A stretch of DNA of 64,000 nt from Candidatus Latescibacterota bacterium (GTDB lineage: Bacteria; Latescibacterota; UBA2968; UBA8231). The notes beneath the pieces were generated by a model, which was not told the origin of the DNA, searched no databases, and saw only the letters and a program-made list of their open reading frames with translations. Below are positions 3,939 through 48,133 of this stretch, piece after piece. Location of the stretch: positions 3,680,001-3,744,000 of the forward strand of contig OZ242318.1 of NCBI GenBank assembly GCA_965208105.1. Direction: 5' to 3'. How positions within the stretch are numbered: position 1 is the stretch's first letter; the number at the start of each line of letters is the position of its first letter. A program made the position numbers and the translations under genes.

Positions 3939-4305
3939 CCCCTCCTTGCCGTGTGTGGACTGCAAATCTCCGGCCTGGCCTTTCCCGTTTCGGTCGTGGA
4001 GGGCTGATACTAGGGCCGGTGGCGGCGTCCGTCAAGTAGAGCAAGCCGCGGCCGCCGGCCCATTGCGGACATCCTCTCCGGGCAGGAGGCCGAACCGACC
4101 GGGTCAGCGGCAGGGAGCCCAAACGCTTATCAGATGCGGCAAAGGATTTGAAGATTTTTATTGGCAAGGGGAAAAATTGGTGTATATTTAGGGGAGAGTT
4201 GCACTTTTGGCACCTTCCAACATTTGCCTGGAGGGGTCCGGGTAATGTCCAAAATTGTCCAGAAAACCCTTGGGAAGCGGCACCTGTTTGGCATCCAAAA
4301 AATAC

Positions 4306-4334
4306 TTGACACCCCTTACCTTTGGGAGTATATT
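4306..4334 (+). promoter_or_regulatory. Sigma70-type promoter for giant surface protein
   Basis: TTGACA-N17-TATATT in an AT-rich intergenic region. Confidence 0.7.
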
Positions 4335-4491
4335 GAAAAATCTTAATTCGCTAATAAGAGGGGAGGAGAAGCGAATTTCTATGTGTTCATCAATTAGAAG
4401 TAGCATAAAGTTCTGGCGTAAGGTTACCCAACCTAGAGTAACTTCAATTTCATCCTTAAGTCAGGGAAATCACCTGGGGAGGAATTCTACA

Positions 4492-26877: not shown

Positions 26878-27976
26878 ATGCCTACGCTGGAAGAAGAGCT
26901 GCAGGATTGCCGCGAGCGCCTCGAACGGATGGGAGGCTACCTTTGACCTGGCGGGAAAGAAGAAGGCCCTGTCGGATCTGGAGGAGCGCATGGCCTCGTC
27001 CGGCTTCTGGAACGACCGCCGCCGCGCCGGTGAGGCGGGGCGCCAGGTGCGGGCCCTGAAGGATTCCATCACCTCGTGGGAGACTCTCCGAGTCGAGCTC
27101 GACGATCTGGGCGACCTGCAGGAGATGGCCGCCGCCGAAGGCGATGAGAGCGCTCTGGCCGAAATCGAGGGCGAGGCGGCCTCCCTGTCCTCCCGCATCG
27201 GCGAGCTGGAGCTGCACAGCACCTTGAGCGAAGGCGACGACCGCAAGAACGCCATCCTCGACATCAACTCGGGGGCCGGCGGCACCGAGGCCGCGGACTG
27301 GGCCGCCATGCTCATGCGCATGTACATGCGCTGGATCGAGCGGCGCAGCTTCCAGAGCGACATAATGGACCTGCAGGCCGGGGAAGAGGCCGGCATCAAG
27401 AGCGTGACGGTGGAGGTCAAGGGCGAGTACGCCTATGGATTTCTCAAGGCCGAGGCGGGGGTCCACCGCCTGGTCCGCATCTCGCCGTTCGACGCCAACA
27501 GCCGCCGCCACACCTCCTTCGCCTCGGTCTTCGTCTATCCGGAGGTCGAGGACGAGGTGGAGGTGGACCTGCGCGACGAGGACCTGCAGATCGAGGTGTT
27601 CCGCGCCGGCGGCGCCGGAGGACAGCACGTCAACAAGACCTCCTCCGCGGTGCGCATCAGGCACCTTCCCACCGGAATCGTGGTCCAGTGCCAAAACGAG
27701 CGCTCCCAGTTCAAGAACAAGGCCACCGCGCGCAAGGTGCTGGCCACCCGTCTCTACCAGCACTACAAGGAAGAAGAGCAGAAGAAGCTGGCGGCGGTGG
27801 AGAGCTCCAAGAAGAGCATCGAGTTCGGCAGCCAGATCCGCTCCTACGTCTTCCATCCTTACAACCTGGTCAAGGACCACCGCACCGCCTGGGAGACCGC
27901 CGGCATCCAGGCGGTGATGGACGGCGACATCGACCCCTTCATCCGGGCCTTTCTGACCCAGGGAAAGACGCGGTAG
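26878..27976 (+). CDS. prfB: Peptide chain release factor 2, +1 programmed frameshift at CTT-TGA-C (26941-26947)
   Basis: ATG 26878 ORF ends GGA GGC TAC CTT TGA C, with internal SD and slippery site; downstream frame has SPF and GGQ motifs. Confidence 0.97.
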
Positions 27977-29973: not shown

Positions 29974-30483
29974 GTGAACACCTGCGAGTTGTGCCACGAA
30001 CATCCGGCCACGGTCGTGTCGGCCCACATTGTGGGGAAGAAAAAGAACATTCTGCACCTTTGCAGCTTCTGCGCCTCCAAGCAGCACGGGGTCGAGACCA
30101 AGGGGACGAAGGTGGAGATCGTGGTCAAGAAGGGGAAGGCCAAGATCCTCGATGAGGACGGGGAGCCCTTCACCGCCCAGTGCGCCGAATGCGGAATGAC
30201 CTACGAGACCTTCAAGGAAGGAGGCCGCTTCGGCTGCCACGCCTGCTACTCCGCCTTCGAGCCGCAGCTGGACCGCCTGCTGAAGCGCATCCACGGGGCG
30301 GTCGAGCACCGCGGCAAGGGGCCGGTGCGGCGCCGGGTGCTGCCCGTTCCGGCGGAGGAGCTGGAGAGCCTGCGCGAGGAGCTCGAGGCCGCGGTGGCCG
30401 ATGAGGCTTTCGAGAAGGCGGCCGACCTCCGCGACCGGATCGTCAGGCTCCGCGGGGAAGGAACCGGGGATGCACCTGAGTGA
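29974..30483 (+). CDS. mcsA: Protein-arginine kinase activator McsA (UvrB/C motif)
   Basis: Four CxxC pairs, GRFGC..CY..F, LKRIHG, C-terminal E.FE.AA.LRD. Confidence 0.88.
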   Translation: MNTCELCHEHPATVVSAHIVGKKKNILHLCSFCASKQHGVETKGTKVEIVVKKGKAKILDEDGEPFTAQCAECGMTYETFKEGGRFGCHACYSAFEPQLDRLLKRIHGAVEHRGKGPVRRRVLPVPAEELESLREELEAAVADEAFEKAADLRDRIVRLRGEGTGDAPE

Positions 30484-31555
30484 GCTGGCCAACAATCCCG
30501 CCCACTGGTTGAGCGGTGCGGACGACGCCCGCGGCATAGTCGTCAGCTGCAGGGCGCGGCTCGCCCGCAATCTCAGCACCCGCCCCTTCGCCAGGACGGC
30601 CACCGAGGAGGACCAGGAATACGTCATCGAGCAGGTGCTCGTGGCCGCCAGGCGCAGCCGACATCTGCACAACGCCGTGTTTCTCAAGATGAACGCGCTG
30701 AACTCCGACCAGCGCCGTTTCCTGGTCGAGCGCCACCTCGTCAGTCCGGCCCTGGCGGCGGGCAAGGGGCAGCGCGGCGTGCTCTACAACCGGGACGAGT
30801 CCCTCAGCGTGATGGTCAACGAGGAGGACCACCTGCGCCTGCAGGCCATTCTGCCCGGGATGCAGGCCAGGGAGGCATGGTCGCGGATCAACGCCCTCGA
30901 TGACGAGCTGGGCGCCGGACTGGACTATGCCCACTCCGAGAGATGGGGCTATTTGACCGCCTGTCTGACCAACACCGGCACCGGGCTGCGGGCATCCGTC
31001 CTCATCCACCTTCCGGCCCTCGTCCTCACCGAGGACATGCAGAGGGTGATGCGCGGCCTGGAGAAGATGTCCTTCGCGGTGCGGGGAGTCTACGGCGAGG
31101 GCACCAATGCCACCGGCAACCTGTACCAGGTATCCAACCAGGCCACCCTGGGGAAGTCGGAGGAGGAGGTGGTCGGCGAGCTCGCCCGCCTGACCGGGCA
31201 GCTCATCGAGTACGAGAAGGAGGCACAGGAAACCCTGATGGAGTCGGCGCGTTCCCAGGTGGAGGACAAGGTCTGGCGCGCCTACGGGGTCCTTTCCCAC
31301 GCCCGCGTCCTGGGCAGCCAGGAGCTCATGAACCTGCTGTCCGCCCTGCGCCTGGGGTACAGCCTGGGAATGGTCGAGGACGTGCCCTCGAGTTTCATGA
31401 ACCACCTGATGATCGTCACCCAGCCCTCCCACCTCCACGCCGAGGCCGGCAGCATACTCGAGCCCGAGGAAAGAGACGTTCGCCGGGCGGCGTTGGTGCG
31501 CCGGCTCCTGGGGGAGTTGAAGTCCAAGGGGAAGGGGGGTAGTGGGTCGGGTTGA
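30470..31555 (+). CDS. mcsB: Protein-arginine kinase McsB
   Basis: R.RLARN, NEEDHLR, GYLTAC.TN.GTGLRASV..HLP, YQVSNQ.TLG. Confidence 0.95.
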   Translation: MHLSELANNPAHWLSGADDARGIVVSCRARLARNLSTRPFARTATEEDQEYVIEQVLVAARRSRHLHNAVFLKMNALNSDQRRFLVERHLVSPALAAGKGQRGVLYNRDESLSVMVNEEDHLRLQAILPGMQAREAWSRINALDDELGAGLDYAHSERWGYLTACLTNTGTGLRASVLIHLPALVLTEDMQRVMRGLEKMSFAVRGVYGEGTNATGNLYQVSNQATLGKSEEEVVGELARLTGQLIEYEKEAQETLMESARSQVEDKVWRAYGVLSHARVLGSQELMNLLSALRLGYSLGMVEDVPSSFMNHLMIVTQPSHLHAEAGSILEPEERDVRRAALVRRLLGELKSKGKGGSGSG

Positions 31556-31562
31556 GATTTAA

Positions 31563-31594
31563 TCTCATTCGGGTCCTGTCTCATTCGGGTCCTG
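31563..31594 (+). repeat. 16-bp tandem direct repeat TCTCATTCGGGTCCTG x2
   Basis: Read directly just after the mcsB stop. Confidence 0.85.
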
Positions 31595-31659
31595 TAATGT
31601 TTATTTTTATACTGCAACCGTTAATATTGCCAAATCCACAGGGAATAGGGAAGCATGCC

Positions 31660-33483
31660 ATGACGAGTTTGTTGAAATCGATGCTCATTGCGGTAATGAC
31701 CTTGGTCATTACCTCATGCGCAGACAGTCCCACCATGCCAAAGGGTAGCCCCAGTCCTGGCAATGGGATAAAGGTTGTAACTGCGGAAGGAAGGCCAATA
31801 TCCAAAGCAGAGGGATACTTGCTCAATAAAAAAGACTGGTCCATGCAGAAGGTGTCCACCAACGCCAAGGGCCGCCTCAAGATAGATCAACCTCTTGCCC
31901 AGGGCAATTATTGGCTAGGCATCTTGGTCGAAGGCGAGGTCTTGGTCGACACCAACGTTGCGAGCGGCCAGGAGACAGCGGTCGTGCATCCCATGAAGCT
32001 GCCGTCGTCCAAGCCAGCCCAAAATGACGATGCCCTGATTCGCGGGGATGTAGATGGGAACGGAGAAGTGAATCAAACCGATGTCATTGCCTTCTTCCTG
32101 AAACTTATCACGGGGCAGACGTTCAGCCTGCAGGCCAACATCAATGGCGACGAGAGTACCGACTGGATTGATCTGGCGCTGTTGGGAGCCTATGTGTATG
32201 GCGGTCCGGACGCCGAAAATCCCTGGAACATCGGTCAGCCCATCGGCGATCCTCCTACGCAGCCGCCTACGCCTCCTCCAACACCTCCACCCACTCCACC
32301 TCCCACACCGCCGCCAGACCCCTACCGCGATGGAAGCTCGATAGAACGGGCGATCATCGTGCCGGATCCCAACTACGTTTTCCAAGGGGAGCAGTTGGAA
32401 GCCGGGCAGCAGATCTTCTATCGAGTGGACGTTCCCTCTACCGGGCGCCTGGTCGTCCACTCCGCGGGAAGCACCGATACCTACGGGACACTCATTTACA
32501 GAAGCAACCGGGTGGATCGAAACGACGACGGCGGCTCGGGCAGAAACTTTCTGATGGATGTTTCCACCTATACCGGACCGCACTACGTCGCTGTAAGGGG
32601 GTATAGCAATGTGGTCAGCGGCGCCTACGACCTCAACGTGGAATTCTTTCCATTCACCTCCGACCAGGCCTTCAACATCGAGCTCCGCTATGTGGCCCGG
32701 TTTTCTGCTGAGGAAAAAGCGGAATTCCAGCGCGCCGCCTCCCATTGGGAGAGAATAATTCAGGCCGACGCGGAGGACATCTATTATTTCTCTGGGAACC
32801 CTACGACGCTCTCCATAGAATGGTTCGGCTCCGACGTAACGATAGATGGCGTTATCGATGATCTGCTGGTTTTCGTGAACTGAGGCACGATAAACGGCGG
32901 GGCGGCGTCCTCAGACCAGGGAATTTTCCGTGAAGATGAGAGCGGATTGCCTTTTTTGGGACTGGTCATGATGGGGGAGGTCGTCCTGGAGTCGGAGGAC
33001 CTGGCGGATGGAACCACCTACGACATATTCCTCCATGAATTAGCTCACACTATGGGCTTCGGATTGATGTGGGACCGCGGGAATTTACTGGCCAATCCGT
33101 CTTCTCGTTTGGCCGGCCGCGACACCCACTTCCGCGGATTCAATGCCGTGAGGGCGTTCGACCAGTCGGGCGGAGAGGACTATATCGGGGGGAAAGTGCC
33201 CGTGGAAAACAGCGCCGAGGCTCCCGGCCCCGGCAGCCGGGACCTCCATTGGAGAGAGTCTGTCTTTGGGGGCGAGGTAATGACCTGGATTCATCGGGGA
33301 GTGCGAGCCCCCCTGAGCAACATCACCCTGCAGTCCTTGTTCGATCTGGGCTATCTGGTGGACGCAAGCCTGGCCGATCCCTATGTGATTCCTGAAACCC
33401 CTGCATTGTCAGCCGGTGATTTTGACCCCGACAGACTCCAATGCACCCTTCACGGCCCGATTTTGATGCCGGGGGGACATTAA
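31660..33483 (+). pseudogene. Lipoprotein with dockerin, Pro/Thr linker, PPC domain and leishmanolysin-like (M8) Zn protease; interrupted by in-frame TGA at 32881-32883
   Basis: Lipobox ITSC; GDVDGNGEV / ANINGD dockerin pair; PPT repeat; PPC DTYG...NDD...NF; FNIELRY...AA..WE.II; HELAHTMG, SRDLHWRE, EVM. ORFs 31552-32883 and 32947-33483 are in the same frame. Confidence 0.75.
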
Positions 33484-33836
33484 GAGGGCACCACTCCTGT
33501 AACCTTGACAATTATAATGTGAAGATGAGAGCTGCCTTTGTAATCACATTGGCGTCTTCGGCAAGATTCCTGCCGGGTCAACTCCAGCCCCTTTTCTGAC
33601 AGGAAAAATAAATACAATAACTGTCAGGCGAAATCGAGCTTGTTTTAAATCACTCTACTTGGACTTGATCAAGGGGGCAAGGTCAGCCTCCGGGGCCAAG
33701 AAGCCATCCTGTCAACGAGAAGTAGGCTGGAAGTTATCCACTGGGATGGGCCCCACATGGCCCTGGTTCAAATTCAGAGGGTGATACCCCTCGTGGGGAC
33801 AGGTCATAATCCGAGGGAAGGGACGGGAAGTGCTCG

Positions 33837-36203
33837 TCAGGATTCTGTTTTCTCACCCAGGCGATACCCGACGCGGGGCTCGGTGAAAAGAAAGGTTGGG
33901 TTGGCGGCGTCGTCTCCCAGCTTGCGGCGGAGGTTTTTTACGGCGGCGCGCACCACCCGTGGATCGATGCTGCCCGGCCCCCAGACCGTTTGCAGCAATT
34001 GTTCGTGGGTTACTACCCATCCGGGGTGAACAGATAGCTCCGCCAACAGGCGATACTCGATGTCGGTCAATCGCACACGCTGCCCGGCCACCGTCACACA
34101 GCGTCCGGCGTAGTCGATGGTCAACTCTCCCAGCACATAGGGTTCCGTGGGATCTGTAATGCCGGATGCCGCCCGTTTGCGCAGAGTCGCCCGCATCCGG
34201 GCGGCCAGTTCCGTCTGTGAGAAGGGTTTGACCATGTAGTCGGCTGCCCCCGCATCGAAGGCCCGGGCGATCACCTCGTCCTGGCCATAGGCGGACAGGA
34301 AGATGACGGGCGCATTCGAGGTCTCGGAAAGGTCTTTCATCAGGTCTATCCCGTCGACGCCGGGCAGCACCAGATCCAGCAACACCAGGTGGGGATGGTG
34401 CTTCTCCATGAGGTGGGGCACATCCTTGGGGTCGGCGGTCACGATGGGAACATAGCCTGATTTGCGAAGGGCATCCCGTATGGTGCGCAGCGCCTGCGGG
34501 TCGTCGTCCACCACCAGGATGGGGGTTCGGTTCCGCTTCGTCGTCGCCCTGCGAGCAGTCCGAGGGAGATCTGAGGCGAGGGCATTCCCCTCCTCCTCGG
34601 CCAGGGGAAGGGTGAAGCTAACAAGAGTACCCTTACCCACGCCCTCGCTTTCCGCCCAAATGCGGCCTCCATGGGCCTCGACAATGCCCTTGCAGATGGC
34701 CAGGCCAAGGCCCCGCCCCTCCTCGCCACAGTCTTGGTCCGGTTCCACTCGCCGGGAAAACTTGCGGAAAAGGTGCGACAGGCGCTCGGCCGACACGCCT
34801 CGGCCCTGGTCGCCCACCGAGACGGCCACGTGGTCCCCCTCCCATACCGCGGCTATGCGGATTATGGTCGACTCGGGCGAGTGCCGGGCCGCGTTGCCCA
34901 GGAGGTTGCCGAGGACCTGCACGAGGCGCCGACGGTCCGCCATCACTCGAGGAAGATCCGGCGCCATCTCGATCTGCAGCGGATGCCGGTTCCCGCCACT
35001 CGAAAAGACCTTTCGGGCTTCGTCCACCAGATCGCCCACGGATTCCGGTTCGGGATGAATCAGCAGGGTGCCCGTTTCGATGCGGGCCACGTCCAGCAGG
35101 TCGTGGATCAGGCCCGTCATTCGGTCGGCCTGCTGATTGATGATGCGAAAGAACGGGATCGTCTCGGCCGGGCTCAGGTCGGTCGAGTTTCCCAGCACGG
35201 TGACGGCAGCGCCCTTGACAGCCGCCAGCGGGGTCCGCAGCTCGTGGCTGACCATGGCCAGAAACTCCGCCCGCAGCCGCTCCAGGTCTTCCAGGTGCGC
35301 CATGTCCTGCACGGTGACGACAAAGGACTCCAAGTCTCCATCCTCCGAGCGGATGGGGGTGGCGTTGACGAGGACGGTCATTTCGCGGCCGTCGGGGCCT
35401 TGGAGAAGGACCTCCTCGGTGCTCACCGCCTCCCCTGCTCTCAGAATATTGGATATGGGGTTTGTTCTCAAGGAGGTCTCCCTGCCGTCCTCCCGGCGGA
35501 TGTTCAGGACTTTCAACAGGGCCTCGACAGTCTGCCCTGGGGCGCGCAGGTACTCAAAGATCCGGAGCGCCTCCTTGTTGGTAGACCGAGGCAGGTCCTT
35601 CCCCCCATCGAAGACGACCACACCCACGGGGGAGATGTCGATCAGGGTCTCCAGGTCGGCCCGGGCCCTCTGCTCGTCCCGGTGTCTGCGGGCATTGGCG
35701 ATGACCAGCGCCGCCTGGGAGGCGAACATGGTCAGGATCTCCTCGTCTTCTTTTGTGAACGCCCTACCGGTCTCCTTGTTGGCAAGATAGATGTTGCCCC
35801 TGCACTCGTCTTGGTGGCGCAAGGGAGCGGCCAGGAAACAACTTACCTCCATGGGGGGCCGGAAGTCAGGGATACCCAGCATTCGGGTGTAGCGGGCAAA
35901 GTCCTTGACCCTCCGAGGGCTTGAAATGTTGCAAAAGTGCTCCCCTGGGGTCGTCTCCCATAATTTCTCGGCCTCCTGGTCCGACATGCCGGAGGCAATT
36001 AAGCCATCAACTTTCCCGGAATCGTCCAAGGTGGCAATCACGCCGTAGCGGGCGTCGGTCAGCGACCGGGCGCTGTCCAGGACCCCCTGCAACACCGTCT
36101 GCAGATCAAGGCTTTCGTTGATGCGCAGGCTCGCCTGGCTCAATCGCGACAGGCGTTGCCGAAGGGTCTTGATCTCTCGTGCCGTTGCCTCGGTTGGATG
36201 CAT
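33837..36203 (-). CDS. Hybrid sensor kinase-response regulator fusion (GAF-PAS-HisKA-HATPase-REC-winged helix)
   Basis: SHELRTPL, N-box NLLGNA, DQGRGV, GLGLAI; VVDDD...LLDLVLPG...KPF; LTDIEYRLL...TEPRVGYRL. Confidence 0.92.
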   Translation of the reverse strand: MHPTEATAREIKTLRQRLSRLSQASLRINESLDLQTVLQGVLDSARSLTDARYGVIATLDDSGKVDGLIASGMSDQEAEKLWETTPGEHFCNISSPRRVKDFARYTRMLGIPDFRPPMEVSCFLAAPLRHQDECRGNIYLANKETGRAFTKEDEEILTMFASQAALVIANARRHRDEQRARADLETLIDISPVGVVVFDGGKDLPRSTNKEALRIFEYLRAPGQTVEALLKVLNIRREDGRETSLRTNPISNILRAGEAVSTEEVLLQGPDGREMTVLVNATPIRSEDGDLESFVVTVQDMAHLEDLERLRAEFLAMVSHELRTPLAAVKGAAVTVLGNSTDLSPAETIPFFRIINQQADRMTGLIHDLLDVARIETGTLLIHPEPESVGDLVDEARKVFSSGGNRHPLQIEMAPDLPRVMADRRRLVQVLGNLLGNAARHSPESTIIRIAAVWEGDHVAVSVGDQGRGVSAERLSHLFRKFSRRVEPDQDCGEEGRGLGLAICKGIVEAHGGRIWAESEGVGKGTLVSFTLPLAEEEGNALASDLPRTARRATTKRNRTPILVVDDDPQALRTIRDALRKSGYVPIVTADPKDVPHLMEKHHPHLVLLDLVLPGVDGIDLMKDLSETSNAPVIFLSAYGQDEVIARAFDAGAADYMVKPFSQTELAARMRATLRKRAASGITDPTEPYVLGELTIDYAGRCVTVAGQRVRLTDIEYRLLAELSVHPGWVVTHEQLLQTVWGPGSIDPRVVRAAVKNLRRKLGDDAANPTFLFTEPRVGYRLGEKTES

Positions 36204-36392
36204 GTCGCCCTCCTAAGGGGGTGATATGGCACTCCTCTATGTCTTCAAGAAATGCGCTTGGGAGCGGACCCATCCCCATATTTTCATAAAAAAATCATTA
36301 TAAGTCAAGGGATTTATCACGTATTCCTCATAAACGGATAGTATATTCCAAAAATTGTTTCTTCCGGATGAAGATCTTCAAAGGGAGTGAGC

Positions 36393-37720
36393 ATGATGAA
36401 GCGAATAATCGGTGTTCTCATGGTTCTGTGCTTGGCGCCCGGGATGCAGGCAGGAGCCGAGCCGCTGGTGGAGGGCCGGGTGCGGCTGGCCTCGGGCGAG
36501 CCGGCCGTCGGCGCCTCTGTGCGGCTCTTCGATTTGGCCGATTTGCGTAAGTGGGTCGGCGCCACCACCGATGAGGCGGGCTATTTCGCCCTGCCGTTGC
36601 GGGCCTTGCCGGGGGCGGCGGCCCTGCCGGAGCGCTTCGCGCTGGGGCCGAACTATCCCAATCCGTTCAACCCTTCCACCCTGATTCCCTACCAACTGCC
36701 GCTGGCGACCCACGTGCGGCTGGAGGTATTCAACGTCCTGGGGCAGCGGGTGGCGACGGTGGTGGACGGGGAGCAGTCGGCGGGTTTTCACACGGCGCGT
36801 TGGGACGCCACCGATGCGGCGGGTCGGGCGGCGGCGGCCGGGGTCTATCTCTACCGGCTGCAAGCCGGCGGGGAGAGCATAACCCGGCGCATGGTGTTGA
36901 TTGACGGGCAGGCCGGCCTGCCAAGGGCGTCGTCGGGCGGCTGGGCGCCGGCGGAGGCAGGCCCCCCGGAAACGGGCATCCCGGTCTATGGCTTGACCGT
37001 CTCCGGTGAAGGGCTGGTCCCCTACGTGGACCCGGGCTTCGGCCTGGAGGCTGGCAGGGGGCCGGTGGACCTGGTGGTCGAGGCCCGGGCTGACGGCCCG
37101 CCGGCGAAGGTGGCCACCGAGGGGACGGGCGGGATCCTGGGCGACGTCAACAACGACGGCCAGGTCACCATGGCCGACGCGCTGGTGGTGGTGATCCACC
37201 ATCTCGATGCAACGCTTGCCGCCCCCAACAACGGCGATATTTCGCTGGGCGACGTCAACGCAGACGGCCGCATCGATCTGACCGACGCGCTGCTCATCAT
37301 GACCTACAGCGTCAATCCGAACGATCCGACCTTGCCGGAGGGGATCGGGGGTCCGGTCGCGGAGGAGAGCCCTGCTCCGGATGGTGATTTGCGCTACCCG
37401 GAGGCGACGCCGGTCGCTGCCAACAGTCAGACGGCGGGTATGCTGGCGGGTGGGGAGACCGACTATTATCGCGTCACCCTCAGCGGCCCCGGCACCCTGG
37501 TGGCCTACACCACCGGCGGCACGGATACCTACGGGTACCTGGAGGATAACGCCGGCACGGTGCGGGACCAAAACGACGATGCGGTCAGGGGCAACCGCAA
37601 CTTCCGCGTATCGGCGGTCGTTACGGCCGGCACCTACTACGTCCGGGTCCGCGGTTTTGTTGCGTCCATCACCGGCGCCTATACCCTGCACGTAGAGTTC
37701 GAGCCGGGGGAAACGGTCGC
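36393..37720 (+). repeat. 1328-bp direct repeat copy 1 (copy 2 at 40087-41414)
   Basis: Colinear without indels (offset 3694); about a dozen substitutions by eye, clustered 5'. Confidence 0.95.
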
Positions 37721-39431
37721 CTCCGACGATCGGGCGGCGCTGGTGGCGTTCTACGAGGCGACCGGCGGGGCTGACTGGGCCGATAGCCGCGGCTGGCTCA
37801 GCACCGCGCCCTTGGGCCAATGGCACGGCGTCGACACGGACACCGACGGCCGCGTTACTCATCTGATCCTCCGTGGTAACCAGTTGAGTGGAGCGATCCC
37901 GGTGGAGTTGGGCCAACTGACCAACTTGCAAGGGCTGAATCTCTCTGGTAACCAGTTGAGTGGAGCGATCCCGGTGGAGTTGGGTCAACTGACCAACTTG
38001 CAGTGGCTGTACCTCGAGGGTAACCAGTTGAGTGGAGCGATCCCGGTGGAGTTGGGTCAACTGACCAACTTGCAGTGGCTGTTCCTCGAGGGTAACCAGT
38101 TGAGTGGAGCGATCCCGGTGGAGTTGGGCCAACTGACCAACTTGCAAGGGCTGAATCTCTCTGGTAACCAGTTGAGTGGAGCGATCCCGGTGGAGTTGGG
38201 TCAACTGACCAACTTGCAGAGGCTGTACCTTGATGGTAACCAGTTGAGTGGAGCGATCCCGGTGGAGTTGGGTCAACTGACCAACTTGCAGGGGCTGTGG
38301 CTCTCTGGTAACCAGTTGAGTGGAGCGATCCCGGTGGAGTTGGGTCAACTGACCAACTTGCAACAGCTGTTTCTCTCTGGTAACCAGTTGAGTGGGTGCA
38401 TACCCGAGGGTTTGCGAGCGGTAGAGGACCATGACCTGGACCAGCTTGGGCTATCGCTGTGCACCACCACGCCCTCCCCTGATCGGGCGGCGCTGGTGGC
38501 GCTCTACGAGGCGGCCGGCGGCGCTGACTGGGCTGATAACGGCGGCTGGCTCAGCGACGCGCCCCTCGGCCAATGGCACGGCGTCGGCACGAACACCGCC
38601 GGTCGCGTTACTCATCTGCGCCTCTCTGGTAACCAGTTGAGTGGAGCGATACCGGTGGAGTTGGGTCAACTAACCAACTTGCAACAGCTATTCCTCTATG
38701 GTAACCAGTTGAGTGGAGAGATCCCGGTGGAGTTGGGTCAACTGACCAACTTGGAATGGCTGTATCTCTCTGGTAACCAGTTGAGTGGAGAGATCCCGGT
38801 GGAGTTGGGTCAACTGACCAACTTGCAGGGGCTGAATCTCTCTGGTAACCAGTTGAGTGGAGAGATCCCGGTGGAGTTGGGTCAACTGACCAACTTGCAA
38901 CAGCTGTTCCTCTCTGGTAACCAGTTGAGTGGAGCGATCCCGGTGGAGTTGGGTCAACTGACCAACTTGCAGGGGCTGAATCTCTCTGGTAACCAGTTGA
39001 GTGGAGAGATCCCGGTGGAGTTGGGTCAACTGACCAACTTGCAACAGCTGTTCCTCTCTGGTAACCAGTTGAGTGGGTGCATACCCGAGGGTTTGCGAGC
39101 GGTAGAGGACCATGACCTGGACCAGCTTGGGCTATCGCCGTGCACCGCCATTGATCCACCGCCGCCGACGGGCGACGCCTGTTTCGTCGGGCAGGAGTTG
39201 AGTCCTGGGCAGAGTTGCACCGTCGATATTCCCAATCTCCACGTCGGCAGCAATCGGTTCGAGGTACGCTCCGGTGGGTCTGGATGTTACGGCAGTATCT
39301 GCGCGGGCACGAGTATGGATCTCAATGGGTTTCAAGCCAGCAAAATTGCGGGCACGTCACGGTGGCTCATCGAAGCACTGCCCAGTACCGCCGGCCAGGC
39401 GAGTGCGAAGGTCTCCGCGGCAGGCTCCTGA
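36393..39431 (+). CDS. Secreted modular protein: FlgD-Ig, dockerin, PPC, two capped plant-type LRR arrays, Cys-rich C-terminal module
   Basis: Signal peptide; NYPNPFNP; GDVNNDG/GDVNADG; LxxLxLxGNQLSG.IP.ELGQLTN repeats; DRAALVA.Y...W...W.GV N-caps; GCIP C-caps. Confidence 0.9.
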   Translation: MMKRIIGVLMVLCLAPGMQAGAEPLVEGRVRLASGEPAVGASVRLFDLADLRKWVGATTDEAGYFALPLRALPGAAALPERFALGPNYPNPFNPSTLIPYQLPLATHVRLEVFNVLGQRVATVVDGEQSAGFHTARWDATDAAGRAAAAGVYLYRLQAGGESITRRMVLIDGQAGLPRASSGGWAPAEAGPPETGIPVYGLTVSGEGLVPYVDPGFGLEAGRGPVDLVVEARADGPPAKVATEGTGGILGDVNNDGQVTMADALVVVIHHLDATLAAPNNGDISLGDVNADGRIDLTDALLIMTYSVNPNDPTLPEGIGGPVAEESPAPDGDLRYPEATPVAANSQTAGMLAGGETDYYRVTLSGPGTLVAYTTGGTDTYGYLEDNAGTVRDQNDDAVRGNRNFRVSAVVTAGTYYVRVRGFVASITGAYTLHVEFEPGETVASDDRAALVAFYEATGGADWADSRGWLSTAPLGQWHGVDTDTDGRVTHLILRGNQLSGAIPVELGQLTNLQGLNLSGNQLSGAIPVELGQLTNLQWLYLEGNQLSGAIPVELGQLTNLQWLFLEGNQLSGAIPVELGQLTNLQGLNLSGNQLSGAIPVELGQLTNLQRLYLDGNQLSGAIPVELGQLTNLQGLWLSGNQLSGAIPVELGQLTNLQQLFLSGNQLSGCIPEGLRAVEDHDLDQLGLSLCTTTPSPDRAALVALYEAAGGADWADNGGWLSDAPLGQWHGVGTNTAGRVTHLRLSGNQLSGAIPVELGQLTNLQQLFLYGNQLSGEIPVELGQLTNLEWLYLSGNQLSGEIPVELGQLTNLQGLNLSGNQLSGEIPVELGQLTNLQQLFLSGNQLSGAIPVELGQLTNLQGLNLSGNQLSGEIPVELGQLTNLQQLFLSGNQLSGCIPEGLRAVEDHDLDQLGLSPCTAIDPPPPTGDACFVGQELSPGQSCTVDIPNLHVGSNRFEVRSGGSGCYGSICAGTSMDLNGFQASKIAGTSRWLIEALPSTAGQASAKVSAAGS
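37875..38378 (+). repeat. Seven tandem 72-bp LRR units
   Basis: GGTAACCAGTTGAGTGGAGCGATCCCGGTGGAGTTGGG... recurring at exact 72-bp period. Confidence 0.95.
38628..39059 (+). repeat. Six tandem 72-bp LRR units
   Basis: Same unit at exact 72-bp period. Confidence 0.95.
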
Positions 39432-39471
39432 CGGCCGCTGGCTGCGGCGGCTGGCACCGCAGTCGGAGTAG

Positions 39472-39627
39472 TTGTACGGCGTCGGCACGAACACCGACGG
39501 TCGCGTTGACTATTTGAACCTCTCTGGTAACCAGTTGAGTGGGTGCATACCCGAGGGTTTGCGAGCGGTAGAAGACCATGACCTGGACCAGCTTGGGCTA
39601 TCGCCGTGCACCACCACGACCCCGTAG
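39472..39627 (+). pseudogene. Orphan LRR module with N-cap fused directly to C-cap (no internal repeats)
   Basis: Translates LYGVGTNTDGRVDYLNLSGNQLSGCIPEGLRAVEDHDLDQLGLSPCTTTTP*; near-identical DNA to the caps in the upstream gene; flanked by stops. Confidence 0.85.
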
Positions 39628-40086
39628 GGAACGGCACCGACCGTATGATCTTGTAGTTGCCATGAGGAACGGCTGTTGTGGCTGGTTGAAGAGTCGCCGC
39701 CGACCCGGCGGGCCAAGGGTCGGCGCGCCGCCTTGACCGGGTCCCCGAGGCCCCTTCGAGGTAGTCGACGTAGAACCCCCATGTCCCTATCCATGGCCCC
39801 CAAAGAGCCATCCTGCGCCTGGGATATCACCTCAAGCACACAACAGGGGCCGGGATAATGGGGAGAGTTGCGCCCTCACCTGGTTCGAGCTCCCTACCAC
39901 CGATCCGCAGACGCCCAGGGAGAGGTACACCCTGGGGTTGCTCCGTCGGGGATTGCTTTCACCCACACCCTTCGGAAAATAGGAAGGGGCTTCGTGCTGC
40001 CATCACTTTGCAGAAATCTCAGGACTGGCCCCGGTCAGTACAGTGCCATGACGAATCAAGGCTGACCCCATATATAAGGAGTAAGC

Positions 40087-43000
40087 ATGATGAGGCGAAT
40101 AATCGGCGTTCTCATGGTTCTGTGCTTGGTATCCGGGATGCAGGCAGGGGCCGAGCCCCTGGTGGAGGGCCGGGTGCGGCTGGCCTCGGGCGAGCCGGCC
40201 GTCGGCGCCTCTGTGCGGCTCTTCGATTTGGCCGATTTGCGTAAATGGGTCGGCGCCACCACCGATGAGGCGGGCTATTTCGCCCTGCCGTTGCGGGCCT
40301 TGCCGGGGGCGGCGGCCCTGCCGGAGCGCTTCGCGCTGGGGCCGAACTATCCCAATCCGTTCAACCCTTCCACCCTGATTCCCTACCAACTGCCGGTGGC
40401 GACCCACGTGCGGCTGGAGGTATTCAACGTCTTGGGGCAGCGGGTGGCGACGGTGGTGGACGGGGAGCAGTCGGCGGGTTTTCACACGGCGCGTTGGGAC
40501 GCCACCGATGCGGCGGGGCGGGCGGCGGCGGCCGGGGTCTATCTCTACCGGCTGCAAGCCGGCGGGGAGAGCATAACCCGGCGCATGGTGTTGATTGACG
40601 GGCAGGCCGGCCTGCCAAGGGCGTCGTCGGGCGGCTGGGCGCCGGCGGAGGCAGGCCCCCCGGAGACGGGCATCCCGGTCTATGGCTTGACCGTCTCCGG
40701 TGAAGGGCTGGTCCCCTACGTGGACCCGGGCTTCGGCCTGGAGGCTGGCAGGGGGCCGGTGGACCTGGTGGTCGAGGCCCGGGCTGACGGCCCGCCGGCG
40801 AAGGTGGCCACCGAGGGGACGGGCGGGATCCTGGGCGACGTCAACAACGACGGCCAGGTCACCATGGCCGACGCGCTGGTGGTGGTGATCCACCATCTCG
40901 ATGCAACGCTTGCCGCCCCCAACAACGGCGATATTTCGCTGGGCGACGTCAACGCAGACGGCCGCATCGATCTGACCGACGCGCTGCTCATCATGACCTA
41001 CAGCGTCAATCCGAACGATCCGACCTTGCCGGAGGGGATCGGGGGTCCGGTCGCGGAGGAGAGCCCTGCTCCGGATGGTGATTTGCGCTACCCGGAGGCG
41101 ACGCCGGTCGCTGCCAACAGTCAGACGGCGGGTATGCTGGCGGGTGGGGAGACCGACTATTATCGCGTCACCCTCAGCGGCCCCGGCACCCTGGTGGCCT
41201 ACACCACCGGCGGCACGGATACCTACGGGTACCTGGAGGATAACGCCGGCACGGTGCGGGACCAAAACGACGATGCGGTCAGGGGCAACCGCAACTTCCG
41301 CGTATCGGCGGTCGTTACGGCCGGCACCTACTACGTCCGGGTCCGCGGTTTTGTTGCGTCCATCACCGGCGCCTATACCCTGCACGTAGAGTTCGAGCCG
41401 GGGGAAACGGTCGCTTCGCTGTCGCCCGACCCTTCGACGGCGACGTTTACCGACGACGGGGCCTGGCACCGGTTCACGGTGCAGGCCGGCGAGGCGGTGT
41501 CGGTGGTGGCCAACCCGGAGGGGACCACCCCGCGCCTGAAGATCACCACCCGCAGCGTCGGGAGCAACTTCTGCCCGGCTGAAGCCGAAGACGACGTCTC
41601 GCGCCGGGACGGCCAGGCCGTCTACCTAGCCGGGTGCGCCACCGGCACGGCCACGGTAGAGCTGCAGCGGCGATCCGACGGCACGGTCCTGAACACCTAC
41701 ACCTTCGAGGTGACCGGCAGCCCGGCGGACCTCATTGTGGAGTCGGTCTCGGTCAGCGACAACACCCTGACGCCGGGGCAATCCTTCACGCTGAGCGCTA
41801 CCGTGCGCAACCAGGGCACGGGCCGGTCGGCGGCGACCACGCTGCGCTGGTACCTCTCGTCAGACACGAGAATCACCACGCAGGATACGGAAGTAGGCAC
41901 CGACCCAGTGACCGCCTTGGGGGGTTCCCGTACCAGTGCCAAGTCGATCCGCCTGACCGCGCCGTCGAGCGAAGGCACCTGGTACTACGGAGCCTGCGTG
42001 GTCAGCGTCACGGGCGAAAGCGTCGGGAACAACTGCTCCCTTGGTGTAAGGGTGATCGTCAAGGAGTACGACAGGGAGGAGATTCTCGTCTTTACTGACC
42101 CACAGATATACAACGACAACGTGTTTGTCTTGCCCGTTACAGAGAACCTCGCCGCCGGCAGTTTGCCACTGAAGGACTACGCGGCGCGTTTCTACGAGAA
42201 CTTCGACGATGCCTTCGATTTCCTGATAATCGTCACCAATTTGCCCGAAGCAGAGAGACCAGTCAGCTATATCGGCAGATATTTGCATGTGAAGAACGAT
42301 GTACAAGGGATTGGTCTATCGATTTTTTCTGACAATAGTAATTGGGGGTCGGCGGGAAAACTCCAAGGTGTGATCGATTTTCCGATCTATTCGACATATT
42401 ACAAGCTCGGACGCTCGGTCTTGTTCGAGGGGCCGACCTTGCACGAACTGATGCATCGGTGGGCAAACTTCATCGTGCCACCATACGAAGCGGCTATTGG
42501 CGCTCATTGGGGATTCACCAGCGTCAACGGTATACTTGGCGGGTTTGATATCGCCAATCTGGTGGACCATGGCGGCGGCCAGTACACCGCCGGAGACATT
42601 GGTGTCAACTTTAATACTGTTGGATGGGGCAACACACGACCATACAGCCCTATCGAGTTGTACTTGGCAGGTCTCATACCCCCAGAGGAGGTCCCTGACT
42701 TCTTGGTTGCAGAGGAGGGACAGTGGCTGCGCGGCGCGGACGGTCTAATCATAGAGGCCGGCAATGGGGAGCCGATATTTACCGCAAGTCGGCTCAAGAC
42801 CTATACGATAGAGGACATCATCGCCGAGCATGGACGACGCGATCCCGACCATTCGCAAGCGCAGAAGGATTTTCGCGCGGCAGTCATTCTGCTGATCGAT
42901 AAGGACCACTTGCCGACCCGAGGTATCCTAGAGACGCTGAGCGACGATATATCCTGGTTCAGTCATGTGGGCAATGTTGGAATCCGCTGGAACGATCGCT

Positions 43001-43155
43001 ATCAAGCATACAATTTCTACGAAGCAACCGGTGGCAGAGGCACAATCACCATGGACGAGCTGTCACATTTCCAACGCCGCGGGGGGAGTGCAAAAAGGCT
43101 TGCGCCGAGTTCGTTCGGAACGCCCCCACCGCCCATCGTGGATCATTGGGATTGA
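40087..43155 (+). CDS. Secreted modular protein: FlgD-Ig, dockerin, PPC, CARDB-like, HExxH Zn-metalloprotease
   Basis: Same N-terminal ~443 aa as the 36393 gene; ADLIV...LSATVRNQG CARDB-like; LHELMHRW...AHWG. Confidence 0.88.
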   Translation: MMRRIIGVLMVLCLVSGMQAGAEPLVEGRVRLASGEPAVGASVRLFDLADLRKWVGATTDEAGYFALPLRALPGAAALPERFALGPNYPNPFNPSTLIPYQLPVATHVRLEVFNVLGQRVATVVDGEQSAGFHTARWDATDAAGRAAAAGVYLYRLQAGGESITRRMVLIDGQAGLPRASSGGWAPAEAGPPETGIPVYGLTVSGEGLVPYVDPGFGLEAGRGPVDLVVEARADGPPAKVATEGTGGILGDVNNDGQVTMADALVVVIHHLDATLAAPNNGDISLGDVNADGRIDLTDALLIMTYSVNPNDPTLPEGIGGPVAEESPAPDGDLRYPEATPVAANSQTAGMLAGGETDYYRVTLSGPGTLVAYTTGGTDTYGYLEDNAGTVRDQNDDAVRGNRNFRVSAVVTAGTYYVRVRGFVASITGAYTLHVEFEPGETVASLSPDPSTATFTDDGAWHRFTVQAGEAVSVVANPEGTTPRLKITTRSVGSNFCPAEAEDDVSRRDGQAVYLAGCATGTATVELQRRSDGTVLNTYTFEVTGSPADLIVESVSVSDNTLTPGQSFTLSATVRNQGTGRSAATTLRWYLSSDTRITTQDTEVGTDPVTALGGSRTSAKSIRLTAPSSEGTWYYGACVVSVTGESVGNNCSLGVRVIVKEYDREEILVFTDPQIYNDNVFVLPVTENLAAGSLPLKDYAARFYENFDDAFDFLIIVTNLPEAERPVSYIGRYLHVKNDVQGIGLSIFSDNSNWGSAGKLQGVIDFPIYSTYYKLGRSVLFEGPTLHELMHRWANFIVPPYEAAIGAHWGFTSVNGILGGFDIANLVDHGGGQYTAGDIGVNFNTVGWGNTRPYSPIELYLAGLIPPEEVPDFLVAEEGQWLRGADGLIIEAGNGEPIFTASRLKTYTIEDIIAEHGRRDPDHSQAQKDFRAAVILLIDKDHLPTRGILETLSDDISWFSHVGNVGIRWNDRYQAYNFYEATGGRGTITMDELSHFQRRGGSAKRLAPSSFGTPPPPIVDHWD

Positions 43156-43384
43156 CCGCGAGAATCTGGACGGAAGGCTGAGGGGGTATTGTGACTGAAT
43201 TGGCTAATAATCATGGCCGTTGGAGGATCAGGCTGAGCAGCTACGATCAGAAACAGTAGGGGTCTTTGTGTACCGGCTGGTGACGAGCGAAGCCGTGCAG
43301 ACACGCGAGCTTACCGTGCTGCGGTAGTGCGGCTCCCATGAGGACGCCGGAACAAGGAGAAAGCCCCACCCACGTCCGCAGACG

Positions 43385-43790
43385 CGAACATGTAGCCCGG
43401 CGCTGGATGTCGGTGATTACGGAAGACCTGCCGGACTATGAATTCACTCAGGGCTGGTCGGGTACGTGCAACGGTCAGTCGTTTGAAAATCTCCGCCGGG
43501 GAGTGGATGGACGACCTGCGGATCTATTCGGGTCGCACTGGAGGACTCCCGTACTCGATGGGGAAGTCATGTTGTCGTACGGGGGAGGGGGGCGCGCTGA
43601 GCTCGATCACGGTTCAGTCCCTGGCCGACCTGGGCTACGGCGTCGATGGCTCTCAAGCTGACCCATATACCCTACCCGGTGCCGGAGCTTTTGTGCGGAG
43701 CCGGTCTCCAGCGGGGGCCGATTCACGTGGTCGACCCGCAGGGGCGCATCGTCCGTACCCTGGGCGACTGAAAGGTATGGCAGGGCGCCA
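43385..43790 (+). pseudogene. Degenerate leishmanolysin-like (M8) cassette with frameshifts and deletion of the HExxH core
   Basis: Fragments ARRWMSVITEDLPD, DDLRIY, SHWR.PVL.GEVM and LSSITVQSLADLGY.VD..QADPY.LP lie in shifting frames and parallel the 31660 protein's WERII..DDLLVF..HWRE..EVM..LSNITLQSL.DLGY.VD..ADPY. Confidence 0.7.
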
Positions 43791-44458
43791 ATGAATTCGC
43801 GGAATAGGAGGTCAGCCGCGCCTTAGTGATTCTGCCTGAGCCAGTCCAGCAGGCGGCCCAATTGTCCCACCAAGTAAAGCGGCAGCGAGAGCAAGGTCAT
43901 TTCCACGCTCTGTCGCGTCCCGCTCACCTGGTGCTGGATGGAGTTGCTGGGTGAGCAAACGGGTTGTAAAGAATGCCAAGGAAGCTATGTAGCGGTATTC
44001 GCAGCCCTGGCCGAACGCGATCCAAATGTAGGCGTTCCCTCGGTCGGGGAAGCCCAAGATGAGATCCTGACTGAATTCGATCTTCGCGACCTCACACGTG
44101 GTCTCCAAACGAATTCGAGGATGGGCGTCAGGCGCGTCAGCTCATCGCGGAATGGTTTCGGTATTACAACAAAGATCGGCCTCTTTCCAGCCTGGCGGGG
44201 AACCGGACGCCGATGGAGGCCTGCACAGGTCGCCAAGGGGCATGAACGCGGGAGAAACGAGGTGAAACCTTGGCCAAGGCCGGGTGGTCTATCCCCTCAA
44301 CCAGCAAAATGACCATCCTGCCAAGTCGGAAAGGAGACCTCAGAGAAATCCAGAAAAAGCAGGACAGGGCAGCAAATCAACCAAAATGAATCCACCTGGA
44401 TCATGCTGCCAAGCTGTCCAAAGAACGGGGGTCCGCCTCAAAAAGTGGGTCAAGGCTG

Positions 44459-44944
44459 TTATTTTTTCGGGCGGACATACCAGCCAAGGCACCGTTCGAT
44501 TTGAGGATCATACACAACCCCGTATTCCATTTGCTGCCATTCTCCCAATCCATTTTGGAACTTGATCTTATTGCCATAATATTTCAATTTGCCCAATCTC
44601 TTGTCTCCCCACACGAACTTTGGAAACCTGGATTCGTACCAGGCGTCAGTCCATTTGTGGTCGTAATCGGCATAGGATTCTACTATATCGCTGCACTGAA
44701 CATTTACGGCCCTTGAGTGCTTATCTCCCCAGCATTGCAGGTCCTGGCGGCAATTCTGATCCTCAGTCCTTGCTTTCTCCGCCTCTGTTAAATTGGGCTC
44801 AATGGCCTGGAAGTTTTTTAGAGTAGGTCGAACCTTCGAAGCACGTGGTGGGGGCTCTTCGTTGTCTCCTACCATTATTTCGATAGTGCACATTCCCATT
44901 AAAAGGCAGAGCACGGCTCCTACGACCATTAAAAATCCGCCCAT
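44459..44944 (-). CDS. Hypothetical membrane-anchored protein, lower GC
   Basis: Strong RBS AGGAGG, N-terminal hydrophobic segment, 161-aa ORF. Confidence 0.6.
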   Translation of the reverse strand: MGGFLMVVGAVLCLLMGMCTIEIMVGDNEEPPPRASKVRPTLKNFQAIEPNLTEAEKARTEDQNCRQDLQCWGDKHSRAVNVQCSDIVESYADYDHKWTDAWYESRFPKFVWGDKRLGKLKYYGNKIKFQNGLGEWQQMEYGVVYDPQIERCLGWYVRPKK

Positions 44945-44993
44945 ATTGATTTCCTCCTATTTGGTGTCTCCCTTTGTCGAAATTGGCGATCAC

Positions 44994-45526
44994 CTAGTCG
45001 TGCGCAATCAGATGGCGCCCCTCGGCATGGTCGCAGAACCAACCCGCCTCCTCGATCATCTCCCCGCTATGGCTGACCAGGGTGTTGTCGATGGCGATCA
45101 CCCCCTGCGCTGAATAGCGCCTCGAGGAATGACCCTGCAACCAGGCCAAACGATGTTCGTTGAGTTGTTCCACATCCCACGGCACCTGAGTAATCCAGAG
45201 GTTCAGGCAGGATGGATCCGTGGTCTGGGCAAACTCGGCGTTGATCGCCGAAACGTTCTTGCGCTCGGCTACCATCAGCCCGGTCAGATATTCGGCAAAG
45301 TGCCAGCGCTCCGGGGTGTCGGCGAACATCCAGCCGAACTCGTCCACGGCTTGCTCGGCGATCGTAGGAAAGGCAATAATACCTGGCGTGAACCCCTCTT
45401 ACAGCGTCAGGGGACGGGCAAGGCGGGGGAGGCCCTGCCTGGCAAATATACTCATGCGGGCGGTATTTCTGCTACCGAAAATCTGGACTCATCGGCAGAA
45501 AAAACTCATTTTGCAAAAGTCCAAAG
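44994..45526 (-). mobile_element. Truncated IS701-like DDE transposase remnant
   Basis: HFAEYLTGL...RKNV...W...GVIAIDNT is typical of IS701-family N-termini; apparent start degraded (ACG-CCA-GGT) and frame truncated; left end approximate. Confidence 0.65.
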
Positions 45527-45542
45527 GGAAGGGCGGCGCCGG

Positions 45543-45571
45543 TTGACAGGTAATTTCACATTCCATAGGTT
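45543..45571 (+). promoter_or_regulatory. Sigma70-type promoter upstream of clpC
   Basis: TTGACA-N17-TAGGTT. Confidence 0.55.
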
Positions 45572-45661
45572 CAAAATCCGGAGGGACTGCTTGGTCTCTC
45601 CGGGTCGGTTTTCAACTCACGGGTCCTGCGTTCGGGGGCGGCTCTCAGGAGGAATTTCCGG

Positions 45662-48133
<2,472 letters not shown>

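Follow-up and report, generated by a model that had tools for sequence, protein, structure and literature searches.

The DNA analysed here, referred to below as the window, is a stretch of 64,000 nucleotides (nt) from a Candidatus Latescibacterota genome (assembly GCA_965208105.1, contig OZ242318.1, positions 3,680,001 to 3,744,000). An open reading frame (ORF) on its + strand (36393..39431, defined by ORF listing and Pfam) encodes a secreted multidomain protein of 1012 amino acids (aa) that carries near-identical leucine-rich repeats (LRRs). We conclude that the repeats probably arose by recent tandem amplification and that their units probably still recombine with one another, the protein being an unexceptional representative of a very large LRR family. 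Their near-identity is most likely due to recent copying and continued recombination, and not to a mechanism resembling adaptive immunity.

Two capped LRR modules with a fixed scaffold and variable ends

Database protein P0093 (1012 aa) has the same sequence as the gene product; the ORF listing also offers an alternative GTG start at 36387, which would lengthen the protein to 1014 aa. An N-terminal 'handle' (36393..37724, +), delimited with Pfam and TIGR04183, comprises a signal-peptide-like start, a domain resembling the type IX secretion system (T9SS) type A sorting domain and FlgD_ig (aa 88-168), a dockerin (about aa 251-307) and a PPC domain (about aa 358-423). The Pfam families present on the protein were LRR_1, LRR_4, LRR_8, FlgD_ig, Dockerin_1 and PPC, and the LRR models of Pfam and NCBIfam extend from about residue 489 up to the second C-cap. 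TIGR04183 (T9SS type A sorting) scored 44.6 bits, for a cut-off of 23, at residues 88-168, near the N-terminus. The protein is adhesin-like and has no NTPase or signalling domain.

The original prediction placed the repeats at 37875..39059. They are real, but the interval holds two arrays and not one, with a C-cap and then an N-cap lying between them. The gene thus encodes two capped LRR modules in frame, each with an N-cap, full units and a C-cap unit (all on the + strand). Module 1 starts with an N-cap (37725..37874; translation DDRAALVAFYEATGGADW...GQWHGV...GRVTHLILR), followed by array 1 (37875..38378), whose seven full units start at 37875, 37947, 38019, 38091, 38163, 38235 and 38307 and all have Ala at codon 7, and by a C-cap unit with a short linker (38379..38477; GNQLSGCIPEGLRAVEDHDLDQLGLSLC; recognized by translation and as repeat family D5). 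Module 2 has an N-cap (38478..38627), array 2 (38628..39059) and a C-cap unit (39060..39149). The six full units of array 2 start at 38628, 38700, 38772, 38844, 38916 and 38988; codon 7 is Glu in four of them and Ala in two, and the first unit is the most divergent. A C-terminal tail of about 93 aa, then the stop codon, completes the gene (39150..39431), and no Pfam or NCBIfam family matched this tail. Tandem Repeats Finder gave a single array (37874-39076) with a period of 72, 16.2 copies and a score of 1123, and 15 GNQLSG units were present in the ORF frame, 13 full units plus the two C-cap units at 38379 and 39060.

Each unit has 24 codons (72 nt), which we divided into a scaffold (codons 1-18, 54 nt) and an end (codons 19-24, 18 nt). 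In the 13 full units, the only nonsynonymous scaffold variation is at codon 7 (GCG or GAG, nine Ala and four Glu), and three synonymous variants were found: ATA once, GGC twice and CTA once. In the ends, codons 19, 20, 22 and 24 are represented by 3, 4, 6 and 4 different codons, respectively, and the Leu codons 21 and 23 show single synonymous variants only. Variable columns thus account for 4/54 scaffold positions versus 12/18 end positions (Fisher p=1.5e-6). This agrees with the near constancy of about 54 nt, synonymous sites included, noticed in the original prediction; an even distribution of substitutions, which it had named as evidence to the contrary, was not found. All eight peptide ends that it listed are present, encoded by 10 distinct 18-nt ends. 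W, Y, F, R, D and E are frequent at the variable end positions; at the centre of module 1 an aromatic/acidic patch (QWLYLE, QWLFLE, QRLYLD, QGLWLS) lies between bland QGLNLS strands, and QGLNLS or its synonymous twin is the end of 5 of the 13 units. A 17-nt unit start matched 16 times in the window, for 0.07 expected, and a 24-nt scaffold piece occurred 13 times, for 0 expected; the repeat pattern is therefore not due to chance.

Codon usage indicates that the scaffolds share a recent origin or have been homogenized. Compared with the 17 Pfam-supported genes of the window, and expressed as the share of each codon's synonymous set, several rare codons are fixed in all 13 scaffolds: GGT (7.9%), TTG (6.5%, three times), AGT (4.7%), GGA (18%) and CAA (11%). 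Under independent draws the probability of this fixation is about 1e-50 (log10 P = -50), and codon preference therefore does not account for the uniform scaffold. Nucleotide identity between unit scaffolds is 0.981, and 0.967 at third positions, compared with 0.560 and 0.399 in a typical homologue (locus L001, see below). It follows that the units are identical by recent descent or have been homogenized, as the original prediction had proposed for the scaffold. The G+C content at third codon positions was 0.68-0.73 in the arrays, 0.68 in the tail and 0.72 in the payload of a neighbouring paralogue (see below), versus 0.84 in the N-terminal module that the two proteins share and 0.85 in the window reference genes.

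Traces of recombination were observed at several levels. First, whole units recur: unit 1 equals unit 4 exactly, GGC variant included, unit 11 equals unit 13 exactly, units 10 and 12 differ at codon 7 alone, and the block 10-11 consequently matches 12-13 with one difference. Second, all four gametes were present at six informative site pairs, for example codon 7 versus codons 19, 20 and 22; these four-gamete failures show shuffling or recurrent mutation. Together with the recurrence of whole units and of a two-unit block, they bear out the unit shuffling that had been suggested from the repeated units 1 and 4 and the repeated ends of units 10-11 and 12-13. The variable codons are moreover linked by single mutational steps, and the intermediate codons occur among the units (TCT-TAT-GAT-GAG; AAT-TAT-TAC/TTT-TTC), a pattern that point mutation in place would produce. 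Third, the parts of the two modules have diverged to very different extents. N-caps 1 and 2 differ at 21/150 nt (14%; 86% nt identity), versus 2/90 nt for the two C-caps (p=0.0025 compared with the N-caps) and 1/54 nt for the consensus scaffolds of the two arrays (p=0.010). The arrays and C-caps are therefore either much younger than the N-caps or were converted after the module duplication.

A remnant of a third LRR module lies downstream of the gene (39473..39627, +). This non-coding sequence, recognized by repeat families D3 and D5, begins 42 nt past the stop codon of the LRR gene and joins the tail of an N-cap straight to a C-cap unit (translation YGVGTNTDGRVDYLNLSGNQLSGCIPEGL...C), with no internal repeats and no start codon. 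It holds the 16th unit-start match, at 39526, and its C-cap differs at 2/90 nt from each of C-caps 1 and 2. A deletion caused by recombination of the first unit with the cap unit would produce such a structure.

LRR class, predicted fold and the protein family

In LRR register the unit reads L[QE]xLxLxGNQLSG[AE]IPVELGQLTN in 13/13 units, which matches the plant-specific (PS) LRR consensus LxxLxLxxNxL(s/t)GxIPxxLxxLxx quoted in PMC7841916, where the x residues of the LxxLxLxxN strand are placed, in the passage concerned, on the inner face of the LRR solenoid. The original prediction had called the arrays similar to the variable lymphocyte receptors (VLRs) of lamprey. As judged from sequence and predicted fold, the repeats belong to the plant-specific class and are not of the VLR type. 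With phmmer, the best matches in the Protein Data Bank (PDB) were FLS2 (3.8e-151) and RGFR/RGFR1 (1.3e-150), then GSO1, MIK2 and BRI1, with Leptospira LRR proteins near 1e-71. Module 1 was modelled alone by single-sequence AlphaFold, with a mean predicted local distance difference test score (pLDDT) of 77.1, a predicted template modelling score of 0.77, and values below 50 in N-cap residues 1-33; a model of residues 447-1014 was too uncertain (pLDDT 59.3, and below 50 in the C-terminal part, at model residues 472-568) and was set aside.

In the module-1 model a strand occurs every 24 residues, at unit positions 20-22 or 20-24, and is followed by a second short strand and a short helix. The inner sheet of the model accordingly carries residues 20, 22 and 24 interspersed with the core leucines, and the location of the variable codons on the inner-face strand, part of the original prediction, agrees with both the model and the PS description. 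Foldseek comparison of the model with the PDB gave MIK2, ERL1, GSO1, FLS2, PEPR1 and BRI1 (TMq 0.65-0.75, best root mean square deviation 1.6-3.4 Å, 40-48% identity for MIK2 and ERL1). Among the best 60 phmmer matches and the Foldseek matches to rank 50, nearly all were plant receptor ectodomains, the others being Leptospira proteins, SHOC-2, LRRD1 and similar LRR proteins, and no VLR chain was found. Plant receptor kinases and receptor-like proteins (FLS2, MIK2, BRI1, ERL1, PEPR1), with their 24-residue PS repeat and inner-face x residues, are thus the closest known system by sequence and by fold. Unlike them, the window protein is bacterial and secreted, has no kinase or transmembrane part, and carries a cysteine-free N-cap; its modules are short (7-8 strands), capped and arranged in tandem within one protein, and its repeats are about 98% identical in DNA. 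The plant-type N-cap family LRRNT_2 was absent from the 15 Pfam families found at E<=0.01. Models of named bacterial LRR virulence proteins (InlA, XopAC/XopAE/XopL and LIC_11051) gave 57-116 bits, below the NCBIfam cut-offs of 450-1600, scores that point to generic LRR similarity only.

The family is very large. An exhaustive search with the N-cap and first unit retrieved 42,475 representative proteins at E<=1e-3, 18,919 at 1e-10 and 4,049 at 1e-30, and a search with the LRR module gave at least 7682 homologues at E<=1e-3 from the best 8000 scored candidates. Homologues share the same grammar, a DRAALVALY...W.GV...GRV N-cap, 24-aa units and a GC[IV]PEGL...C cap, and usually have several modules. 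It was also observed in multi-module bacterial LRR proteins from metagenome-assembled genomes (MAGs) of Gemmatimonadota and Caldilineaceae, annotated as 'leucine-rich repeat domain-containing protein'. At least 2584 proteins of the database have the N-terminal handle, combined with LRR, CARDB, NHL/SMP-30 propeller and WD40/TolB-like payloads, which suggests a shared display or anchoring module with interchangeable binding or enzymatic parts.

We compared 376 proteins (ClpC left out), a sample biased towards query-like proteins, of which 259 have at least six chained non-cap units. Within each of the 259, scaffold identity exceeded identity at the x positions (medians 0.61 and 0.14), and 43 contained exactly duplicated units. 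The positional pattern is therefore a property of the family, and the 'adaptive receptor-like design' read into it by the original prediction goes beyond the evidence. Of the 259, the window protein shows the highest internal conservation, with a scaffold aa identity of 0.974 and an x-position identity of 0.452 over its 13 units; no other protein exceeded 0.9, the next being P0134 (0.877).

The closest relatives of the N-module, P0126 (73% identity) and P0134 (69%), each have their own scaffold variant (...GELTNL and ...AQLTNL). Scaffold identity within the window protein and these two relatives is 0.974, 0.877 and 0.779, versus 0.71-0.76 between proteins; an excess of identity within proteins is, at the level of sequence, a signature of concerted evolution or of independent expansions. 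The exact 18-aa scaffold of the window (A or E at position 7) was found in no genome of a species-representative collection without the source genome. Its degenerate back-translation hit one locus, L001, in an unrelated Dehalococcoidia MAG, with diverse units and Thr for Ser. Apart from the two paralogues in the window, no protein in the database (lengths 557-1775 aa) was more than 73% identical to the N-module.

In a literature search that covered few subscription journals and no supplements, we found no description of near-identical plant-type LRR arrays in secreted bacterial proteins and no characterized member of this family. LRRs are counted among the 'eukaryotic-like' domains of sponge-associated Latescibacterota MAGs in the relevant portion of PMC12993501, which does not imply a sponge habitat for the source organism.

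Selection, recombination and alternative explanations

The following scheme is, in our view, the most probable explanation of these observations. Each array would be a young tandem amplification of one 72-nt unit, whose 54 identical scaffold bases would allow misaligned units to recombine homologously. Through unequal crossing-over or gene conversion, in one array or from one to the other, this recombination would duplicate, delete and reshuffle whole units and keep the scaffold uniform, synonymous sites included (concerted evolution), so that differences would persist only in the 18-nt end. Codons 19, 20, 22 and 24 would specify the outward-pointing residues of the concave strand, which would be without structural constraint and presumably contact the ligand. 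The conserved handle carries the two capped plant-specific-type modules, both presumed to be extracellular ligand-binding surfaces, in what would be a secreted ligand-binding protein.

Selection was estimated from the proportions of synonymous (pS) and nonsynonymous (pN) differences, using Nei-Gojobori averages over all unit pairs. We obtained pS 0.046 and pN 0.011 in the scaffold, 0.34 and 0.26 in codons 19-24, and 0.58 and 0.36 (ratio 0.62) at the four x codons. The scaffold requires a minimum of 4 mutational steps, 1 of them nonsynonymous and 3 synonymous, compared with a minimum of 17 in the ends, where 12-13 are nonsynonymous and 4-5 synonymous. Omega is therefore about 0.6-0.8 at the x codons (about 0.8 from step counts) and about 0.1 in the scaffold, values that come from few codons in recombining units. 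Neither Nei-Gojobori averages nor step counts over the 13 units gave dN/dS >1 at the x codons, and positive selection is not supported; selection may nevertheless retain the diversity of these residues.

Several points weigh against recent amplification with continued recombination as a complete account. Synonymous change is about five times denser in the ends (4-5 steps per about 4.3 sites) than in the scaffold (3 steps per about 12.8 sites); the binomial p is about 0.03 with 5 steps, and about 0.07 by hand calculation with 4. This excess is not predicted by recent amplification plus relaxed constraint and, although the evidence is weak, would call either for selection that shields the ends against conversion or for a mutation bias acting locally. 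It fits, equally weakly, ends that coalesce deeper than the homogenized scaffold, with mutation bias as the alternative. In addition, ongoing recombination is inferred from a single genome, and ligand binding by the x residues is a presumption. Finally, the absence of diversification machinery (see below) is not absolute: the Pfam scan covered 44 window proteins (9 + 35), of which 16 (3 + 13) had no Pfam match, and 64 kb of a genome of about 4.85 Mb.

The strongest competing explanation, which we consider possible but distinctly less probable, is a regime of rapid diversification ('high internal conservation'), in which the uniform scaffold would at once permit frequent unit reshuffling and result from it. 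Under diversifying selection on the four x positions, this reshuffling would provide the population with a repertoire of binding surfaces. According to the text extracts of PMC4986451, WD, ANK and TPR repeats of fungal NOD-like receptors (NLRs; HET-E/D, NWD) are near-identical, vary at few positions of the binding surface and undergo concerted evolution by reshuffling, high internal conservation being defined there as at least 85% identity over at least 100 aa. The window protein exceeds this value, with a whole-unit identity of about 0.89 over 312 aa (hand arithmetic), and its rank as the most internally conserved of the 259 homologues points in the same direction. Bacterial NLR WD/TPR repeats with 80-90% internal identity, recorded in the extracts of bioRxiv 10.1101/2020.01.06.895854, provide a precedent. 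Variation at binding-face positions, with many W, Y, F, R, D and E residues, four-gamete failures with block duplications, and raised synonymous diversity in the ends, which suggests deeper coalescence than in the scaffold, would also be accounted for.

However, pN/pS at the x codons does not exceed 1 (0.62 by Nei-Gojobori averages, about 0.8 from step counts), the bland QGLNLS end or its synonymous twin is found in 5 of the 13 units, and among proteins of 557-1775 aa the database contains no further one above 73% identity to the N-module. Moreover, the window protein is secreted and adhesin-like and has no NTPase or signalling domain, whereas fungal and bacterial NLRs are intracellular NOD/STAND proteins with WD, ANK or TPR repeats; LRRs are stated to be absent from them in the sections at hand of PMC4986451 and bioRxiv 10.1101/2020.01.06.895854. 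Positive selection and repeat-number polymorphism were shown for fungal NLR genes, whereas the window array is known from one genome.

An assembly artefact, with units collapsed, reordered or over-polished so that their order and number, and part of their identity, would be spurious, is very unlikely. Identical stretches of 54 nt present 13 times are hard for short-read assemblers, and the exact duplicates (units 1 and 4, units 11 and 13) could come from mis-joins. Nevertheless, the gene lies on a 4.85-Mb contig, its frame is intact through 1012 codons, both arrays have proper N- and C-caps, and homologues in other assemblies behave alike, with exact duplicates in 43 of 259.

The least plausible explanation, which we regard as highly improbable, is a programmed diversification written into the 18-nt ends, by a diversity-generating retroelement (DGR) or by conversion from silent cassettes as for VLRs or pilin. 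It would account for the restriction of variation to a short defined segment, and a non-coding LRR remnant does lie just downstream. DGRs combine a nearby reverse transcriptase with a template repeat and change only positions that are adenines in the template. A lamprey VLR starts from an incomplete germline gene flanked by many donor LRR cassettes, which are assembled with an AID/APOBEC-like deaminase. Among the 44 Pfam-scanned window proteins there was no reverse transcriptase, deaminase, transposase or recombinase. Donor cassettes were likewise absent from the 64 kb, all 16 unit-start matches lying in the LRR gene or in the single remnant, which lacks any internal unit that could act as donor. 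Whichever unit is taken as candidate template, G and C positions are among the variable columns (GGG/TGG/AGG/CAG; CAA/GAA; TCT/GAG), so that an adenine-specific, DGR-type process does not fit, and the codon variants are linked by single steps.

A DGR target was accordingly rejected, with no reverse transcriptase among the 44 proteins, no unit copy in the 64 kb outside the gene and its remnant, and non-adenine variation. VLR-type assembly was rejected as well: the ORF of 1012 codons is complete, and neither cassettes nor a deaminase were found in the 64-kb window. Lamprey VLRs share with the window protein only the principle of varying concave-face residues on a conserved LRR frame; their LRR class and caps are different, and the window gene is complete in the genome. 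The targeted diversification put forward in the original prediction finds no support in these results, and no dedicated diversification machinery is needed for the observed pattern. A mobile origin of the modules was also rejected, as megablast of 37725-39150 gave no match in plasmid and phage collections. No PADLOC defence-system match was obtained for the LRR gene or the neighbouring paralogue, no Rfam match was found in 33000-46000, and promoter and terminator scans performed no better than shuffled controls.

The neighbouring paralogue, the surrounding region and related systems

A paralogue of 1022 aa (40087..43155, +; Pfam and DNA alignment) lies downstream of the remnant. It has the same N-terminal module as the LRR protein, and its payload consists of CARDB and a domain bearing an HExxH motif. 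Positions 36384-37723 and 40078-41417 align over 1340 bp at 99%, with 14 mismatches, 8 of them within the first 81 bp, and the homology ends exactly at the first N-cap junction, where the payloads begin. This looks like payload swapping on a conserved handle, as far as the alignment can tell. The presence of a paralogue with the same handle and a different payload, added to the traces found at the level of units, indicates that the locus exchanges modules as well as units. Recombination between the two 1340-bp direct repeats would delete the LRR gene.

The C-terminal 330 aa or so of the paralogue (residues about 675-1005; payload 41419-43152) had no Pfam match and contain LHELMHRW, an HExxH motif. 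Their identity with the C-terminus of the multi-module LRR protein P0014 is 45%, and they may form a metallopeptidase-like payload that accompanies LRR modules as well. TIGR04183 is located near the N-terminus (aa 88-168) in both the LRR protein and the paralogue; in three other window proteins (4255-12768, 12900-14447 and 20527-21399) a T9SS type A domain occupies the usual C-terminal position.

Housekeeping genes surround the locus (FtsK, TsaD, RF2, a McsB-like kinase, ClpC, BamA, Skp, FabZ and PEPCK). With 83-85% identity, ClpC resembles proteins annotated as Candidatus Latescibacterota (several of them), Gemmatimonadetes or Handelsmanbacteria, which places the organism in that group as a Latescibacterota-like member. 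The gene for a McsB-like kinase and clpC are adjacent in many bacteria. Here the McsB-like guanido kinase gene (30401-31555) and clpC (45662-48133) are about 14 kb apart (31552-45665). The interval is occupied by genes for a dockerin protein and a hybrid histidine kinase, by the two paralogues and by several small ORFs without matches. At its edges the G+C content falls to 0.555-0.57, versus 0.63-0.69 outside, and the interval may be an inserted variable region. The hybrid sensor kinase-response regulator (788 aa, GAF-PAS-HisKA-HATPase-REC-winged helix; 33837-36203, - strand) is divergent from the LRR gene and might regulate it. The RF2 gene prfB (26879-27976) has a +1 frameshift site, with GGAGG, a short spacer and CTTTGAC at 26941-26947, and its PCRF and RF-1 domains continue in the next frame.

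Two further systems resemble the LRR array. The type I LRR exons of Ectocarpus LRR-ROCO genes (Zambounis et al. 2012), as depicted in the parts of PMC3341825 that concern them, consist of one 24-aa LRR per 72-nt unit, are shuffled within and between loci, and have non-coding remnants nearby. They are eukaryotic and exon-based, are associated with a ROCO GTPase and include intronic and inverted copies, whereas the window array is continuous and in frame, with one remnant.

The second system is bacterial. Transcription activator-like (TAL) effectors of Xanthomonas are made of near-identical tandem DNA repeats, with specificity in one or two hypervariable codons, and evolve by repeat recombination. 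Their fold, ligand (DNA) and secretion route are different, and they have no sequence relation to the window protein.

If only recent amplification and concerted evolution are at work, the LRR gene adds little beyond a neat textbook case from an uncultured bacterial lineage. It is also conceivable, though we hold it to be rather doubtful, that the uniform scaffold is the working part of a bacterial repeat-reshuffling system, with frequent exchange, duplication and deletion of units within and between arrays and paralogues. In that case a changing assortment of concave surfaces that bind prey, host or polymer ligands would be present in the population, a prokaryotic and extracellular counterpart of the diversification regimes of fungal NLRs and brown-algal LRRs. 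The fixed frame with four variable positions resembles designed repeat-protein binders and could easily be tested for ligand binding. If strains differ in unit number or order, extreme members of the family could show how extracellular binding is retuned without a dedicated mutator, in free-living or host-associated bacteria.

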